Shown here: positions 1-8,214 of the stretch, one piece after another | Position numbering within the stretch: position 1 is the stretch's first letter | How the letters are laid out: the number at the start of each line of letters is the position of its first letter | Assembly: GCA_034439575.1 (NCBI GenBank) | Contig: JAWXAQ010000008.1 | Location: 160,001 to 224,000, forward strand | Direction of reading: 5' to 3' | DNA: 64,000 bases | Source of the DNA: Leptospira sp. | GTDB lineage: Bacteria; Spirochaetota; Leptospiria; Leptospirales; Leptospiraceae | Program-made: the position numbers and the translations under genes | Notes under the pieces: model-generated | The model's input: the letters and a program-made list of their open reading frames with translations, nothing else | Databases searched by the model: none | Told to the model about the DNA's origin: nothing

Positions 1-2268
1 TTCAATCATTTGTTGGATATCGATCACATTGATTCCAAATCTCGCCGCTGCTTCTCTATTAATTTTTATGGTCAATTGTGGGCTTTCGTTTTCTTGTTCG
101 ATCCCATACTCACTGGCACCCTTCATTTCTTTTACAATGTCTAATATTTCTGTGCCAATACCTCGCATAACACGTAGATCGTTGCCAGAAACGAATACGG
201 CCAAGTCAGCAATGGTTCCCATGATGGCTTCCGATAGGTTGTCCATGATGGGTTGAGAAAAACTGATCCTAGCTCCAGGTAAGGTAGCCTCTAAATCATT
301 TTTCATTCGGAGGAGTAATTCTTGTTTGGTAATTTTTTCTTGCCAATCATTATAGTCTTTTAGTCCTATTAGAACTTCTAGTCTGTTTGGTGGAAGTGGG
401 TCAGTACCATCATCATTTCGACCTAACTGAGATAATACGACATTTACCTGCTCGTTTTTGTAAATAATTTGCCTGATTTTTGGCATAAATTTTCTTGCTT
501 CAGGAAGTGAAATTCCTACAGGAAAGAAAATACGGATATTGAATCCACCCTCATCCATTTCAGGTAAAAATTCTGTTCCCAATGCATACATTCCAATGGC
601 TAACAAAGCGAATACGATACTAAATGTGGTTTTGACAATGACTCTAGATCTTTCTACTATGTATTCGATAAGGATTTCATATTTTTTCTCTAACCAATGG
701 TAGAATGGATTATGCCATTCAATGGGTCCCGGATTAGTCGATTCAAAATACTTTCTATAAATTATCGACATCAGCACAGGAATTACAGTCATAGCAAAAA
801 TTAGTGCACCTAATATGGCAAAGGAGATTGTGAATGCCATAGGCTTGAAGAGTCTTCCTTCAATTCGTTCAAAGGAAAAAATGGGAAGATATGCTAAAAT
901 GATAATGAGAATCGAAAATAAAATTTCAGTTCCGACTTCAGCTGATGCATCACGCGTAAAGGAGATGATCCCTTTCTGTTTATCAGCGGGACTTGCATCT
1001 CTGTACCTTCTCATGATGTTTTCAACCATGATCACAGCACCATCTACGATGATCCCAAAGTCGATGGCACCTAATGATAGTAAACTGGCTGGTATGCCCG
1101 TTAGGTTCATTAATAAAAAGGCAAAGAGCATGGCAAATGGAATCGTAGCGACAACTACTAGGGATGCTCGAACACTTCCAATAAAGAAAATCAATACAAG
1201 ACTGACAACGACAACGCCTTCTACTAAGGTCTTACCAATTGTTCTGAGTGTATAATTTACTAAGTCTGTCCTATCGTAAGTATTTCTAATTTGCACATCT
1301 TTAGGAAGGTAGTTTTCATTTATCTCTTGGACTTTATCACGTATCCGCACTCCCATTTCATTTGGATCGCCCCATCGTCGCATGGCAACCAAACCTTGCA
1401 CAGACGAATCTACATCCAATAATCCATCGATATCATTTTGAACCGTATAACCAAGAACTCCACTGGGGATAGGGTGGGACACTTCGACAGTACCTAAGTC
1501 TCGAATGAAAACGGGAACACCATTTACTGTTTTTACAACGATGTCTTCGATATGTTTTGGATCTCGGATAGCACCAAGGGAACGGATTGGAAATCCTTGT
1601 TCCCCTTGTAAAAGTAAGTTACCACCAGTGTTTAAGTTGTTTTCTTGAATGGCTGTGATCACATCGCGAATTGTCAATTTATAACGAATCAATTTATCTG
1701 GTGAAGTCACAACATGGTATTGTTTAGGAAGTCCACCAAAGGTGACTACATCGGCTATGCCTGGAATTTGTAACATCTTTGGCATAACAATCCAGTCTTG
1801 GATCGTACGTAATTCCATAGATGTATGATTAGCTTTTGATTCTAATACATATCTGTAAATTTCACCGACTGGTGAACTCATAGGACCAAGAGAAGGATGT
1901 ACATCTTCTGGCAAGTCCGCATCAGCAACTCTTTCCATTAGACGCATCCGAGCAAAATAGTCATCCGTTCCATCTTGAAATACGAATTGAAATACTACTA
2001 ATCCATTGATAGTTCGTGATCGTCTAACCGCAACATTTGGAATAGCATTTAATACTCGTTCAATTGGTAATGTGACTCTTTCTTCGACTTCAACTGCTGC
2101 TTTACCTGGAAATTTTGCAATAAGACGTACTTGGGTATCTGCAATATCAGAATATGCCTCTTTTCTAATATCAATCCATGCCCATGTTCCGAACAGTATT
2201 GATATTGCTGCAGCACATAATGTATAAATTCGATATTGGAGGGCCTTTTCTATAAAATCTTTGATCAT
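1..2268 (-). CDS. czcA: CusA/CzcA-family heavy-metal RND efflux permease (5' part; gene continues beyond window start)
   Basis: Absent from the ORF track because no stop falls inside the window. Manual translation from ATG 2268 gives [17 protein letters not shown]...[11 protein letters not shown]...[13 protein letters not shown], and it contains the HME-RND signature [18 protein letters not shown] (about 1020-1075) and [11 protein letters not shown]. The start overlaps the upstream stop (ATGA). Confidence 0.93.
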
Positions 2269-3006: not shown

Positions 3007-4014
3007 TTAAAAACCAAAACTCAAGCCTTTCATAAGGATGGAGCCCTCAACTACAACTTTTTCTCCGATTCTTAATCCATCAATGATATTGACCTTTTCT
3101 TTCGTAGAAACACCTAACACAACTTCACGGCGATGAAAGTTTAAAGGTGTCTCTTCCACAAAGACATAGTTTTTTCCTTCTACAGTGACTATTGAGGAAT
3201 AAGGTAAAACTACAGAATCATTTTTGGTTTCTTCTGGAAACTTAACGGTACCAAACATCCCAGGTTTTAGTCTATAACCAGTATTTGTGATCGCTATTCT
3301 CATTTTTGCGGTTCTAGTTAATGGGTCAACGTTGTCTCCAACGGCTTCTGCCATCCCGATGAAATCCTCATCAGGAAAGGAAGCAAATACAACTTTTACT
3401 TTTTTTCCTCGTTTAAGGCTTGTCATCTGAGATTCAGGAATATCTGAGATGACCCATGATTTGTTCATTCCACCACCGGCAAGTTCATTTGGATTCAAAC
3501 CTTGTGCACGAAGTTTACCCTCGAATTCTGCAAGTTCTGCAGAATCATTGCCAAGCTCTGTTTCTACCTCTACTAAATCTTTCTCTGTTGCCACACGATG
3601 CTTAAACATATCTTGGATCCGATTCATGTTTTTTCTAGATCGATGTACTTTGTTTTTAGAATGCACATAACCTACATAAAGATCATTTAATTCTGCTGAT
3701 TCAAAAAGTATGATTCTTGTTCCACTACTAACAGAGGGAGACGCTGATGCAATGATTCGTGCAGGGGCTTCTAAACTTACGAATTCTCCACCACCACCGA
3801 TTACTGCTGATTTCACAATTTCTAAACCGGGGCTATTCGGTTTGAATTCGATGCGAAGTCCATTCTCATGTGCTACAGCTTTTTCTGGATGATGCGCTAC
3901 TTTTTTGGGAGATCTAGTGAGAGCGTAAATGGTAATTGATAGTATAATAATTGTTAATGAGGCAATTAATATAATCAATGATCGTTTATTCAGAGATTTA
4001 ATGGGATTTTTCAT
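3007..4014 (-). CDS. czcB: RND efflux periplasmic adaptor (membrane fusion protein), CzcB/CusB-like
   Basis: N-terminal TM anchor; MFP motifs [36 protein letters not shown] and [12 protein letters not shown]; lies between the TolC-like and RND genes. Confidence 0.9.
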
Positions 4015-5435
4015 TTCAGTTCCTCAGTTTTTGGTTGTGGATTTGTTTTTGAATTCGTTGGTAAAAAGATTCCGTAACCAACAGAGTAATTTACATTTTC
4101 AATAGCTTCCATTCGATCAGTTTGGAGTTTGAGCATTTCTACTACGCTCGTTCTATAAGTTTCAAAAAAGTCAGCAAACTCAAGTATGGTGATGTATTTT
4201 TTTTCGTAACTCATGATCATATCGAGTGATAAATTTGCATAATCTTTAAGATATGTATCTATAAATCTGCGATATAGTGCGTCCTTTACTCTTGCCGATT
4301 GAAACGCGATCGCTACTTCATTTTCTACTTCCAAAATTCGATTCTTTAATTCTTGTTTGCGCACAAGAATGGCTTTTTCGGCGGCTTGGATATTACCTTG
4401 ATTTCTATCAAAGAGAGGTACATTCAATTGAGCCGTGACCCCCCAATAATTTTGAAAGGCCGTTCCACCTCTGTTATACGTAGGTCCAAATGCAATGTCT
4501 GGAATCGCATTTGCATGTTGTAATTCTAAATTAGCTTCTTCATATTTGAGCGTTTGTAATGCTACTTTTAAATCAGGTCTGTAATCTCGTGCCTTTGCAA
4601 CGAGTTCTTCCAACTTTGCTTGATTAGGTTGGATCTGATCAAGTGTTGGTTCTTCCACTGCAGGGAAGAAGGCTACTTTCGGTTCTCTGTAACGATCATC
4701 ATTTAACAGAACCTTCAAATCAGATTCTTTTTCATAAACTTTAATGCTCATATCTTCTCTTTCTTTTTTTAGAAAGAAGAGGAGGGCTCTCAAACGAAGT
4801 AATTCCGCCTGCAAAATCGCCCTTCGTTTATAGGCTAGTTCTGAGGAAGATACTGTTTTTTCTATGGAGGCAATACTTTGGTCATAAAACACGAGAGCTT
4901 TGCGATAAAAATAGATAGTATAATAAGTGCGCCTAAGTTTAGTTAATAAGGCGCGTGCTAAATCAAAAAATTCTTGTTCACTGATTTTAGCATTTAATTC
5001 GGCGACCCGAACTCGTTTATCAATTTTTCCACCTAACAAAAATACTTGTTGGATTTGAACTACAGATTGGCCTGACCTTGTAGTATCAAAATACCTTTGT
5101 GTTGGTTCAGCAAAAATACTTTGATCGATAAAAATGTTTGGATTTGCGTATAGACCCGCTTGCATCACACCTGCTTTTTTAGCATCGATTTGAAACTTAG
5201 CGGCAATCAGAAGCAAATTGTTCTGCCAAAGCAATGTTTCTGCCGTTTCAATATCAATCTTTACATCCTTTCGTATGTCTTCTGGATAAAGTTCAGAACC
5301 AAAGGATGTCGGCGATTCATTTGAAAGCTGTCTGTCCAATGAGTTAACTGCTCTCTCACCTGGAGATTCTGATTGGCTTGTGAGATAAGCCGTCGGAAGC
5401 AGAATCAAGGATATGATCATTCTTTTAAAATTCAT
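4011..5435 (-). CDS. czcC: TolC/CzcC-family outer membrane efflux protein
   Basis: Signal peptide; OEP motifs [22 protein letters not shown] and [13 protein letters not shown]; first gene of the CBA operon. Confidence 0.9.
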
Positions 5436-5476
5436 CGTAAAGCCTGTGTTAAGTGTAAATATGTGATGTTAGACAT
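5432..5476 (-). CDS. Putative 14-codon leader [17 protein letters not shown] coupled to czcC
   Basis: Minus strand reads AAGGAGG-gtccg-ATG TCT AAC ATC ACA TAT TTA CAC TTA ACA CAG GCT TTA CGA TGA. The SD is perfect with 5-nt spacing, and the TGA overlaps the czcC ATG (ATGA). Confidence 0.55.
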
Positions 5477-5497
5477 CGGACCCTCCTTGTCGCGAAG

Positions 5498-5535
5498 CAA
5501 GATAACAATAAGGTAAGGTCAAGATATGATAAGGT
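5498..5535. promoter_or_regulatory. Direct-repeat array upstream of the efflux operon, candidate response-regulator binding site
   Basis: CAAGATAACAATAAGGT (5498-5514) and CAAGATATGATAAGGT (5520-5535) have a 22-bp period; AAG(A/G)T sub-units sit at 5499, 5510, 5521 and 5531. Confidence 0.45.
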
Positions 5536-5589
5536 TCTATATTCTAGAATTTATTATCAAAACTTTAGTTTTAACTTATTGTTTTGAAG

Positions 5590-5964
5590 CTATGTAAGGT
5601 TAGGTGGGGGTAAATTTAGTAATAGAAAGGAAAGTAAAAAGGTATGAGAACGATCGGATCTTAGCGAAAAGTGTGATGAAATAAATCCAAAATGAAAATG
5701 ATTTTCGCTAAAACCATCATAAACCAAATCCAAATAGTCACAGCGATTGCGCACAAAATTGGCAACCGTCTCTGAATCAAGATACTCAACTGCTTCTACG
5801 ACATCTTTAGTTTTATGATTATTTTTAGTATGGACTTTATTTGCTGTGGTAGAAGGTAAAAAAATCGAATCAAAACCGCCATCTTGTTCAGTCGGCAGTA
5901 GAATGAATGTTGTCAAAATGACAATCAGTAGATTCTGAATGATTTTTCTCAACATTTCCTCCAT
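5590..5964 (-). CDS. Small membrane-anchored protein with C-terminal LNLPPP motif (candidate arrest/leader peptide)
   Basis: N-terminal hydrophobic segment, His/Phe-rich stretch, ends LLLNLPPPNLT; lies directly upstream of the czcCBA operon. Confidence 0.7.
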   Translation of the reverse strand: MEEMLRKIIQNLLIVILTTFILLPTEQDGGFDSIFLPSTTANKVHTKNNHKTKDVVEAVEYLDSETVANFVRNRCDYLDLVYDGFSENHFHFGFISSHFSLRSDRSHTFLLSFLLLNLPPPNLT

Positions 5965-6087
5965 GATCTTTTTGACGTATTAGCAAGCAATAATCTTTCT
6001 AAATAAAGGAAATAAGCTAATTTCATTTAGCGGTATGTACTAAAATCATTGCACATAATGTTTACTTAATTGAGGCAAAAAGGAGAC

Positions 6088-6115
6088 CATCTTTGCATAT
6101 AATAATGCAAAGATG
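6088..6115 (-). terminator. Rho-independent terminator-like hairpin
   Basis: CATCTTTGCAT-N6-ATGCAAAGATG forms an 11-bp perfect stem, followed on the minus strand by GTCTCCTTTTT. Confidence 0.55.
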
Positions 6116-6173
6116 ATCACAAGGATGTTTGGCAAATGAGAAACCGCAGAATGTGAAATAAATATAAAAACAA

Positions 6174-6208
6174 CCTGTGTTCTAAACCATTTCGATTTAG
6201 AACACAGG
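6174..6208 (-). terminator. Rho-independent terminator
   Basis: CCTGTGTTCTAAA-N9-TTTAGAACACAGG forms a 13-bp perfect stem, followed on the minus strand by TTGTTTTT; it begins 18 nt after the stop of the 6227 ORF. Confidence 0.7.
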
Positions 6209-6226
6209 ATAAAAAGGGAGAGAGGT

Positions 6227-6568
6227 TTAAACGGGAGGGGGTAAACTCAAATATGAGTCTTGTAAAATATAAGAAAACGCGGAGTTGTTTTGAAAAATAG
6301 AAGTTAGGTGATGATTTTTGAAATCCAAATACTCGGAAATTTCACGAGCCTTGTTTTTATCATCCGAATCTTTGTCTTTTGATTCTTCTTGCTCAAATGT
6401 GCCATGAATTGTGACCGAAGATTCACTGACTAAGGTTCTTTTTTGTCCGACTCTATTTCCTTGGGAGCCTTTGAGCCGAACGGTCAACTTATCATTGCTG
6501 AGAAATGCGAAAGCAAGGCATAGCGATAGCACTGAAATCCCGAATGCTTTAACTATTTTCTTCCACAT
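6227..6568 (-). CDS. Small membrane-anchored protein with C-terminal LSLPPP motif (candidate arrest/leader peptide)
   Basis: ORF 6227..6607, with likely start MWKKIV at 6568. It has an N-terminal hydrophobic helix, a charged low-complexity linker, and ends YLSLPPPV. Confidence 0.7.
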   Translation of the reverse strand: MWKKIVKAFGISVLSLCLAFAFLSNDKLTVRLKGSQGNRVGQKRTLVSESSVTIHGTFEQEESKDKDSDDKNKAREISEYLDFKNHHLTSIFQNNSAFSYILQDSYLSLPPPV

Positions 6569-6642
6569 GCAGAACATTGTATCATGAATCGGATTAAAAT
6601 CTAGCATCTTCTATACAAAATGCTGAAAAATAAGTAAAATTT

Positions 6643-8214
6643 TTATAAAATCTTGCCCAACCACTCAATTCGGAATAAATCTAAGCGGCGATCTAGCATA
6701 TTTCGCACTGATCCTTGCTTTCGGACTTCTTTGAGTAAATCTAAATCCAAGTCGGCAATGAGCGTCATTTCTGTGTTGGGAGTGGCTTCTGCGGCGATAG
6801 CATCGGGCGGAAAGGAAAAATCTGAGGGGGTAAAGACGGCGGATTGAGAATATTGGATGTCCATATTTTCGATGTTCGGGAGGTTTCCGACGGAACCTGT
6901 CATCACAACATAAATTTGGTTTTCGATAGCGCGGGCTTCGGCACATTTACGAACTCTGAGGTATCCGTTTTTCGTATCTGTGTAATAAGGAACAAATAAG
7001 ATATCGATCCCCCTTTCGCGGAGGATACGCGCAAGTTCTGGAAATTCCACATCATAACAAATGAGAATCCCGATTCTACCTGCATCCGTTTCAAAAACGC
7101 GCAAAGTATCACCACCGATGACTCCCCAATACGAACGTTCGTCAGGTGTAGCATGAAGTTTGTATTGCACGTCATGGGTTCCGTCTCTGCGACAAAGAAA
7201 GGATACATTTCTCAATTCTTGGTCTTCATATTCAAACATAGACCCAGTGATGATATTTATATTATAAGAGACTGCGAGTTTGACCATTTCGTCTCGCATT
7301 TTTTCTGTATAGTCAGCTAATGCGCGTACGGCGTTTGATGCATTCATTTTATTGAATTGTGTGAGCAGTGGTGCATAAAAGAATTCAGGGAACAAAACAA
7401 AATCTGCATTGTAACTAGCGACAGTATCAACAAAAAATTCTACTTGGTCCCTGAGTTCTTCGAAAGATTTTACGGAACGCATCTGCCATTGAACAGCGCC
7501 CACACGTACAACGGTTTTTTTGCCTCCAATCAGTCGTTCTTTTTCTTGGTGATAGATATTGAGCCATTCAAGTAGGCAGGCATATGAACTATAACCTTTG
7601 TTTGCTGGGAAGTAATTTGTGACGATTCTTCGTACATGAAAGTCATTTGCTAATTGAAAGGATAAAACTGGATCAAAAAGTTCTTTTTGTTTGACTAGGT
7701 TTACATATTCTTGAGGACTCATTTCCCCTTCATGATTTTTGTAACCTGGTAACCACCCACCAACAATGATTCGGCGAAGATTGAGTTTTTCACAAACTTC
7801 TTTACGAGCATCATAGAGTCTACGTCCAAGACGTAATCCTTGGTACTTTGGATTTACAAAAACATCGACGCCATATAAAGTATCACCATCGGGATTGTGA
7901 TTCGGGAGACCGCCTCCACCTGTGATCGTGTCATATTTATGATTATCTCCATGTTCGCTGTATTTTACGATCATAGAAATAGCACCCGCGATAACTTTGC
8001 CTTTGTCTTCTATGGCAATTTGACCTTCAGGAAATATTGAAATTTGTCTTTCAAATTCTTCTTTGGTCCAAGCTCCATCAAATTGATTAGAAAAAACAGT
8101 ATCCATAATACTGCGGACATTTTCGTAATCTCCAGGGCGAAGGTATCTAAGCTCTAATTTGTGTTTTTCGGATTTTGTCGCTTTTTTATTTTTTGACTTT
8201 TTTTTTGCGACCAT
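6643..8214 (-). CDS. Bifunctional GNAT acetyltransferase / carbon-nitrogen hydrolase (nitrilase family)
   Basis: N-terminal GNAT motif VFVNPKYQGLRLGRRLY; C-terminal nitrilase triad FPEF, QYKLH, LICYDVEFPE; ARAIENQ. Confidence 0.9.
   Translation of the reverse strand: MVAKKKSKNKKATKSEKHKLELRYLRPGDYENVRSIMDTVFSNQFDGAWTKEEFERQISIFPEGQIAIEDKGKVIAGAISMIVKYSEHGDNHKYDTITGGGGLPNHNPDGDTLYGVDVFVNPKYQGLRLGRRLYDARKEVCEKLNLRRIIVGGWLPGYKNHEGEMSPQEYVNLVKQKELFDPVLSFQLANDFHVRRIVTNYFPANKGYSSYACLLEWLNIYHQEKERLIGGKKTVVRVGAVQWQMRSVKSFEELRDQVEFFVDTVASYNADFVLFPEFFYAPLLTQFNKMNASNAVRALADYTEKMRDEMVKLAVSYNINIITGSMFEYEDQELRNVSFLCRRDGTHDVQYKLHATPDERSYWGVIGGDTLRVFETDAGRIGILICYDVEFPELARILRERGIDILFVPYYTDTKNGYLRVRKCAEARAIENQIYVVMTGSVGNLPNIENMDIQYSQSAVFTPSDFSFPPDAIAAEATPNTEMTLIADLDLDLLKEVRKQGSVRNMLDRRLDLFRIEWLGKIL

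Follow-up and report, generated by a model that had tools for sequence, protein, structure and literature searches.

We analyzed a 64,000-nt stretch of the genome of a Leptospira sp. (referred to as the window), in which two short open reading frames (ORFs), ORF-A and ORF-B, precede a czc-type operon encoding a heavy-metal efflux pump of the resistance-nodulation-cell division type (HME-RND). All genes of this locus lie on the minus strand. A preliminary description of the same DNA had listed two tandem ORFs upstream of such an operon; both lie where it had placed them, and both are conserved genes. Their products share a hydrophobic N-terminus and a C-terminal tail with three consecutive prolines close to the stop codon. 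Comparative analysis suggests that such [L/I]PPP-tailed ORFs may be the cysteine-free equivalent, specific to the Leptospiraceae, of the CutF/CruR leader class. The features of the locus are collected in Table 1. The genomes used for comparison comprised 41 of the genus, 114 of the family, and 73 from 13 other genera.

Table 1. Features of the locus, listed in minus-strand order (positions are those of the window)
Feature	Position	Strand	Remarks
GNAT/nitrilase gene	6643-8214	-	first in minus-strand order, before ORF-A
ORF-A	6227-6568	-	113 aa + stop; hydrophobic helix at the N-terminus, then a disordered linker; tail ...YLSLPPPV
ORF-A D67-D70 (DSDD)	6359-6370	-	D-x-x-D word 43 residues before PPP
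ORF-A PPP codons CCC CCT CCC	6233-6241	-	followed by one Val codon and TAA
Intrinsic terminator T1	6174-6208	-	16-pair stem and T-run, 18 nt past ORF-A stop
Nearly invariant single-stranded element in T1-T2 spacer	6128-6143	-	alignment columns 101-113 invariant or nearly so
Intrinsic terminator T2	6085-6118	-	14-pair stem and T-run
ORF-B	5590-5955	-	121 aa + stop; N-terminal hydrophobic helix, R-x-R-x-D-Y-L-D, tail ...LLSFLLLNLPPPNLT
ORF-B R69-D76	5728-5751	-	invariant R69, R71, D73, L75 and D76; first Asp 43 residues before PPP
ORF-B PPP codons CCC CCA CCT	5602-5610	-	modelled pairing with Shine-Dalgarno run 5481-5487
14-codon mini-ORF	5432-5476	-	strong Shine-Dalgarno sequence AAGGAGGG at 5481-5488; TGA overlaps czcC ATG (ATGA)
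czcC-type outer-membrane factor (OEP/TolC-type)	4011-5435	-	Pfam OEP 2.8e-28; 154 nt past ORF-B stop
RND periplasmic adaptor (czcB type)	3007-4014	-	family match
250-aa ORF with N-terminal signal-like segment	2265-3017	-	between adaptor gene and czcA, in operon; no Pfam family (best E 0.08)
czcA-type HME-RND pump	1-2268	-	TIGR00914, 862 bits, over cut-off; leaves window at left edge

In the ORF list of the window, which starts each frame at its first ATG, ORF-B spans 5590-5964 (124 aa) and ORF-A 6227-6607 (126 aa). Judging from the orthologue alignments, the likely starts are at 5955 and 6568, respectively, and the in-frame ATG at 6607, upstream of the ORF-A start, is probably not used. No model of NCBIfam or Pfam (the latter scanned to E ≤ 1) matches either protein. 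The frame of czcA is intact in the contig beyond the window edge (1121-aa open frame).

Conservation of the proline-tailed ORFs and their position before czcC

A similarity search with ORF-B (E ≤ 1e-3) recovered it in only 14 of the 41 genus genomes. A motif scan for the tail, with one locus taken per genome (n = 34 loci), revealed an ORF of the same type just downstream of ORF-A, and directly before czcC, at 32 loci. ORF-B of the window ends in LLLNLPPPNLT, and the tail of the genus can be written as L-L-S-x-[L/F]-L-L-N-[L/I]-P-P-P followed by two to four variable residues. Alongside these invariant residues, the Leu and Pro codons drift synonymously. An invariant tail combined with freely varying synonymous positions argues that selection acts on the peptide and not on the DNA.

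ORF-A was detected in 40 of the 41 genus genomes. Its tail reads Y-[L/I]-[S/N]-L-P-P-P-V-TAA in 33 of the 34 orthologues, again with synonymous variation of the Pro and Leu codons, and a tail of the LPPP type is present at all 34 loci. The sole exception is ORF-A of genome G033 (locus L021), which has lost the stop after PPP and carries an 11-residue extension that reaches into the next ORF's frame region. The preliminary description had proposed to test whether the LxLPPP tail near the stop is kept more strictly than the linker; the tail is present at 34/34 loci for ORF-A and 32/34 for ORF-B, 1-4 codons before the stop. The ORF-A profile matched none of the 73 genomes in the 13 other genera, and by this comparison ORF-A is a genus-specific duplicate or paralogue.

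Downstream of ORF-A, terminators T1 and T2 are both kept at all 33 loci compared, with 9 of their 20 predicted pairs changed on both sides in a compensatory manner. An invariant pyrimidine run (CTCCTCTCT), also conserved in 33 loci, lies directly 3′ of the ORF-A stop. The 16-nt element between the two terminators is possibly a small RNA seed or an operator, and the region as a whole (6075-6226; pyrimidine run, T1, element and T2) could be a 3′-UTR-derived or independent small RNA, or an attenuator. An Rfam scan of positions 5200-6800 yielded nothing credible (one miRNA model at E 0.61).

A czcC orthologue is present in 100 of the 114 family genomes; for 20 of these loci, drawn from seven other genus-level groups, we inspected the upstream region. 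Each of the 20 holds a same-strand ORF directly upstream of czcC; these ORFs are 105-125 aa long, start with a hydrophobic N-terminus and end in [L/I]PPP plus 1-4 residues. Similarity beyond the N-terminus and the tail fades: group g12 retains words of ORF-B, and the most distant groups share almost nothing. Since these groups carry a single LPPP ORF per locus and ORF-A is not found outside the genus, ORF-B appears to be the ancestral, pump-linked type. Among the ORF-B-type loci that have the pump, the ORF occupies the position immediately before the pump operon in 52/52.

The gene order in groups g12 and g13 (loci L112-L123) is a secA-like gene, a conserved gene of approx. 160 aa, the LPPP ORF and czcC. 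One public homologue of the g12 type (P0037) is frame-shifted and lacks the tail.

Anatomy, spacing and breadth of the family

The anatomy of the proteins was compared in a set of 115 sequences, in which the N-terminal segment was picked by hydropathy. A hydrophobic N-terminal segment is present in all of them, and its end lies 74-99 residues before PPP in 115/115. The PPP motif is followed by 1-4 residues in 114 sequences, which places it within the last 15 residues, the limit used for a terminal PP motif in the survey of CutF-like proteins (PMC9973294).

An ungapped profile anchored on PPP revealed a second motif, a D-x-x-[D/E] word exactly 43 residues before PPP in 32/32 ORF-B sequences, 6/6 sequences of g12 and 27/34 ORF-A sequences; in g14 it stands 44 residues before PPP (3/3). 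The word is DYLD in ORF-B, where it sits within an invariant R-x-R-x-D-Phi-L-D, and DSDD in ORF-A, where D70 is nearly invariant in the 34-sequence alignment. Group g13 has a basic-acidic word of its own, offset by two residues, and the profile detected no D-x-x-D word in the third copy of the genome (paralogue C, see below) or in the four most distant groups. The linker between the acidic word and PPP has an entirely different sequence from group to group. The EYLD word that the preliminary description took to be shared by ORF-A and ORF-B is species-specific and is not conserved in the orthologues; the conserved word is D-x-x-D.

AlphaFold2 (AF2) models built with family alignments contain no globular fold, with a mean confidence (pLDDT) of 59.2 and a global score (pTM) of 0.25 for ORF-A, and 55.6 and 0.19 for ORF-B. 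Only the N-terminal helix is confident (residues 2-33 in ORF-A and 2-19 in ORF-B), and low-confidence helices are placed around the D-x-x-D word and before PPP. The hydrophobic N-terminus and unstructured linker described earlier agree with the conserved segment and with these models. BLASTP aligns only the last 20 residues of ORF-A and ORF-B (E 0.028), and hhalign aligns 24 columns with a probability of 76%.

No paralogues came up when the whole ORF-A or ORF-B protein was searched against the same genome. A scan of its ORFs of at least 50 aa for PPP in the last 8 residues, as had been proposed earlier, retained 16 of 12,540, three of which are ORF-A, ORF-B and paralogue C; the last was found only in this way. 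Paralogue C (108 aa, ending in YISLPPPSLV) is located on contig 12 (G000:C12:121078-121404; L079 5079-5405), 66 nt upstream of a second czcA-type pump gene. It is present in 40 of the 41 genus genomes, and lies 64-80 nt before czcA in 30/30 loci. In the czcA-2 operon, czcA and the OEP gene are separated by a gene for an inorganic pyrophosphatase, and the adaptor gene is followed by a LexA-like gene.

A profile made from 27 diverse members found 38 representative clusters among 1.84 billion proteins, and the tail is kept in 21 of the 22 inspected. All named public homologues are annotated as 'hypothetical protein' of Leptospira or Leptospiraceae. As far as these searches reach, the family is small and lineage-restricted.

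Comparison with known leader peptides

CutF and CruR, of the class that comes nearest to these ORFs, are DUF2946 proteins that combine a signal peptide with a Cys motif and, at the C-terminus, a Pro motif (PMC9973294, PMC9426467), and are described as controlling the next gene through metal-dependent ribosome stalling (PMC9973294, PMC9426467, bioRxiv 10.1101/2025.02.05.636593). In the cutFOG operon of Rhodobacter capsulatus, stalling on CutF is reported to open a stem-loop which masks the next gene's Shine-Dalgarno (SD) sequence (PMC9973294, bioRxiv 10.1101/2025.02.05.636593); the mature protein of 90 residues has a C41xxxC45 motif, and PPP lies within the last 10 residues (bioRxiv 10.1101/2025.02.05.636593). 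CruR (Bp2923 of Bordetella pertussis) contains CXXC and RAPP motifs and is reported to block Rho-dependent termination in a C>G region; the spacing between sensor and stall motif matters, and translation is needed in cis (PMC9426467).

A survey of 5,334 'CutF-like' proteins names OEP (CusC/CzcC), CzcA and CusB among the most frequent downstream neighbours and calls Spirochaetota 'scarce' in such proteins (PMC9973294). Given these neighbours, a proline-tailed exported leader in front of a metal RND pump is of an already known kind. The 'undescribed regulatory system' announced in the preliminary description must therefore be given up, since ORFs with a signal and a PP motif before OEP, CzcA or CusB genes form a large class described in that survey. 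The features that would distinguish the Leptospira ORFs, to judge from the alignments, are a thiol-free candidate sensor word, the 43-residue ruler, the family-wide link to czcC and an apparently free-standing duplicate. As for the arrest-peptide layout proposed earlier, its anatomy holds family-wide and matches the published leaders of the CutF/CruR type; arrest itself belongs to the interpretation weighed below.

Like CutF in its published outline, the candidate leader of Leptospira is a small exported protein heading a metal operon; PPP stands a few residues before its C-terminus, another conserved motif lies some 40 residues upstream of PPP, and a stable product would not be needed. As in the CutF-like class, a metal-homeostasis gene follows on the same strand within 1000 nt (czcC after 154 nt in the window and at 20/20 other-genus loci, czcA 64-80 nt after paralogue C). 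Unlike CutF, the ORFs have neither a PF11162 match nor a Cys/His motif, with the acidic R-x-R-x-D-Phi-x-D word in its place. They also differ in the conserved hydrophobic residues before PPP and in the 100-160 nt that separate them from the pump gene, where the RNA features are clade-specific. In addition, one paralogue (ORF-A) appears to be free-standing, and another (C) lies upstream of a putative sigma-54-type promoter.

With CruR the Leptospira ORFs share two conserved motifs at a fixed spacing and a long intergenic region, of 162 nt in CruR (PMC9426467) and 154 nt here; they differ in having L-PPP and not RAPP, and a C/G ratio of about 1 after the ORF-B stop. A CruR-like rut site was considered as a candidate. 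The median C/G ratio past the ORF-B stop is 1.06 in the genus and 0.90 elsewhere, and this ratio of about 1 lends no support to such a site.

According to PMC9973294, CzcI of Cupriavidus metallidurans, encoded immediately ahead of czcCBA, is a small exported protein with a suggested role as metal-sensing regulator, and it has no C-terminal proline motif. ORF-B resembles it in size class, export and position, and differs from that description in its proline motif. Among named clusters, a language-model feature search placed one of DUF2946/CzcI closest to ORF-B (score 0.93, 116 features in common), which we treat as a weak lead; the search otherwise returned unnamed Bacteroidota clusters only.

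SecM, MifM, VemP and the Apd/Apc peptides, in their published outline, have the same order of N-terminal export or anchor segment, variable spacer and conserved Pro-containing C-terminal arrest segment. Unlike these export-monitoring peptides, which precede sec or yidC genes, the Leptospira ORFs precede metal pumps, and their motif is L-PPP and not RAPP. No sec or yidC gene was found directly downstream, where the genes encode OEP, adaptor and HME-RND proteins; the secA-like gene of g12 and g13 lies two genes upstream. A literature search found no paper linking Leptospira with DUF2946, and Leptospira combined with 'arrest peptide' returned only off-subject work; among the papers listed on Leptospira czcA or heavy metal efflux, none deals with these ORFs.

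Searches for the DUF2946 model PF11162 at E ≤ 10 gave no match in the six-frame translation of the whole genome, and none among the 32 ORF-B members. In the family, two of the 114 genomes match, one of them above the cut-off. The latter match lies on a high-GC contig (L110; G035:C49), which carries a true DUF2946 gene with an HCPGC motif and a product ending in RAPPLHS; the composition of the contig looks foreign to this AT-rich genus, and it is probably an assembly contamination.

The genome contains leaders of another type as well. Two Cys/His-rich signal ORFs, neither of them matching PF11162, have the classical CutF-like anatomy and lie directly before the OEP gene of HME-RND operons: one ends in FRPPRENIT (L132 228-605; G000:C36:54624-55004), and the other has RYSPPSH approx. 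20 residues from its end (L133 173-601; G000:C15:239269-239700). The FRPP type forms a family ('D') found in 38 of the 41 genus genomes, with many invariant Cys and His positions, plus a D-H-V-C-x-S-C-P-C motif approx. 40 residues before the C-terminal F-R-P-P. By hhalign it shows no relationship to the LPPP family (probability 0.8%). A proline-motif leader accompanies four of the five HME pumps of the genome, thiol-rich ones standing with some pumps and thiol-free LPPP ones with others.

Proposed roles: cis-acting leaders or membrane proteins

We favor the reading that ORFs of the ORF-B type are cis-acting, CutF/CruR-like stalling leaders of czcCBA, in which the acidic word 43 residues from the stall site would act as the sensor, and rate its chances at slightly below even. 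It starts from the observed anatomy, conservation, spacing and synteny. Further points in its favor are the missing globular fold, the proline-motif leaders of four of the five HME pumps and an efp gene in the genome. The stalling, the signal sensed and the RNA switch, which we infer, would be connected as follows. The N-terminal hydrophobic segment of ORF-B would bring the nascent chain to the membrane, and the ribosome would slow at PPP, an effect to which conserved hydrophobic residues, by then in the upper exit tunnel, would contribute. At this pause the R-x-R-x-D-Phi-x-D word, 43 residues behind, would have just emerged from the ribosome, and the length of the pause would be set by what the acidic word meets, be it a metal, the translocon or a partner. 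The paused ribosome would hold the leader RNA open and make a masked start region of the mini-ORF and czcC usable; in the window, this region's SD run is a predicted pairing partner of the Pro codons themselves. ORF-A would be a genus-specific duplicate with the same 45-residue C-terminal module, transcribed on its own.

In a more far-reaching form, which we consider rather doubtful, these ORFs would be Leptospiraceae-wide, thiol-free 'transmembrane stalling' sensors. An L-x-L-PPP stall would present the acidic word, 43 residues behind, to a non-thiophilic signal such as Zn/Co/Cd, the pump or the translocon, the Pro codons would serve as an anti-Shine-Dalgarno sequence that masks the start of the pump operon, and ORF-A would be without precedent as an arrest-type module whose output is in trans or linked to RNA.

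In the window, the interval from the ORF-B stop to czcC contains no predicted terminator or sigma-70-like promoter. The overlap of the mini-ORF TGA with the czcC ATG suggests translational coupling. According to a thermodynamic model, the six paired bases of the ORF-B Pro codons bind the SD region with summed probabilities of 0.39-0.80. At 13 of the 52 ORF-B-type loci, the window included, the Pro codons have an SD-like G-run as their top-ranked predicted partner. We treat this pairing as a hypothesis, since a C-run and a G-run in AT-rich RNA are expected to pair in such a model regardless. RNAalifold found no consensus structure in the ORF-B-czcC leader of the main clade (four pairs predicted, none covarying), where hairpins were seen by eye only. 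In some g12 and g13 loci there is an overlapping mini-ORF with uncertain starts. By eye, the mini-ORF had looked like a universal feature, a notion that was dropped after counting.

A number of findings weigh against a stalling leader of this kind. The gap between ORF-B and czcC is long (approx. 97-174 nt in the genus, 44-158 nt elsewhere), its RNA features differ by clade, and a mini-ORF overlaps the czcC ATG at just 18 of the 32 genus loci. Pairing of the PPP codons with the SD sequence is not predicted in the 19-species main clade, and the leader of the window (5420-5612) folds no better than shuffled sequences (z = -1.79, 8/200 equal). Neither Cys nor His occupies an invariant or near-invariant column in the alignments of ORF-A (34 sequences) and ORF-B (32), which accordingly lack metal-binding candidates; the His stretches that had been proposed as a metal sensor are species-specific and not conserved. 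Pauses at PPP are normally relieved by elongation factor P (EF-P). Finally, conserved juxtamembrane stretches occur in ORF-A and paralogue C, and such motifs suggest, as far as the alignments go, a role at the protein level.

The setting of ORF-A and paralogue C also weighs against a stalling leader. The next same-strand ORF after ORF-A is ORF-B, but it lies past two conserved, covarying terminators, which begin 18 nt after the ORF-A stop. Genomes G031 (L027) and G035 (L044) retain ORF-A and both terminators, with no ORF-B-type or long same-strand ORF within approx. 1.5 kb of ORF-A, and no czcC orthologue was found in either assembly (G031, 67% complete; G035, complete, fragmented and with 4% contamination). 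Because of the two terminators and this persistence where ORF-B and czcC were not found, ORF-A looks like a free-standing gene with its own transcription unit and not like a cis leader of czcC. The C-terminal module would therefore be kept in a gene without an obvious cis target. The tandem pair, which the preliminary description treated as a unit, falls apart on these grounds and on the restriction of ORF-A to the genus.

A TTGG[CT]-N7-TTGC element encloses the final two codons and the stop of paralogue C at 29/29 loci and in the genome under study, where the element has 73 matches against 29 expected from composition. The sigma-54 promoter consensus is GG-N10-GC (-24/-12). Because an element of this type spans the ORF-C stop and rpoN is present (Sigma54 DNA-binding domain match, 2e-62), the main czcA-2 transcript probably starts after ORF-C, from a putative sigma-54-type promoter.

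These findings bring into play the main alternative, which we hold to be possible although not probable, that the ORFs encode trans-acting, small membrane-anchored periplasmic proteins (N-in, C-out), either accessory subunits of the pump or 'connectors' modulating a sensor, with the L-x-L-PPP tail as a docking motif and the constant spacing as a helical hairpin. An ORF-A that is monocistronic by its sequence signals and kept without ORF-B or czcC in two assemblies would fit such proteins, as would a sigma-54-type promoter separating ORF-C from czcA-2. Conserved stretches after the membrane segment of ORF-A and C are needless for an arrest peptide, and the low-confidence AF2 helices near the D-x-x-D word and before PPP would suit a hairpin. 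In addition, contigs from wastewater sequencing runs cover ORF-A in 4/4 runs; this is a weak point, as two of the four runs are probably DNA and carry-over of DNA into an RNA library is possible. Parts of ORF-B are covered in two runs, no contig spans ORF-A to ORF-B (uncovered parts being uninformative), and one contig of 157 nt runs from the last 17 nt of ORF-B through the mini-ORF start.

On the other side, AF2 gave no confident fold, and distant genera retain only the hydrophobic N-terminus and the tail, which would be odd if these were subunits that present a binding surface. Since both the number and the identity of the residues past PPP vary, the tail is not a classical C-terminal docking peptide. 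No partner was identified (no complex prediction was made), and the 52 of 52 ORF-B-type loci stand immediately upstream of the pump operon, as cis leaders do. The cis-leader and trans-protein readings are not mutually exclusive.

For some membrane regulators, polyproline motifs tune the protein amount by way of EF-P. The tail might in the same manner be a throttle, i.e. an EF-P-dependent brake on copy number, or else an RNA device based on anti-Shine-Dalgarno coupling, in both cases with no signal-dependent stalling. The efp gene speaks for this explanation, as do the base pairs predicted between Pro codons and the downstream SD sequence in the window and in 13/52 loci; we nevertheless find it improbable: the third positions of the Pro codons drift, whereas L-L-x-x-x-L-x-L before PPP is conserved as amino acids, and the pairing is absent in the main clade. 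Moreover, ORF-A has no downstream cistron to couple to, and a fixed 43-residue spacing to a second motif is needless for a brake.

That the frames are open by chance, or conserved as promoter or operator DNA and not as peptides, is hardly credible: the lack of a family annotation, the 'hypothetical protein' status of all public homologues and the DNA element overlapping the end of paralogue C are outweighed by frames of near-constant length in 34, 32 and 30 genomes, invariant residues with synonymous variation, and an architecture shared by 38 representative clusters.

The apparently free-standing ORF-A and paralogue C, with its putative promoter on the stop codon, call for caution against regarding every proline-tailed small ORF as a cis leader. 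For ORF-B-type ORFs, the 43-residue spacer provides a testable handle on the distance that a sensor needs from the peptidyl-transferase centre, and a small, lineage-restricted family together with genetically tractable saprophytic Leptospira makes a compact test case. If the reading of ORF-B-type ORFs as stalling leaders is correct, the class would be defined by its geometry (targeting segment, sensor word, fixed spacer and Pro stall) and not by homology. The principle of CutF and CruR, in which a nascent exported peptide reports the metal status outside to its own ribosome, would then extend to spirochaetes, to czc-type pumps and to a sensor without cysteine or histidine.

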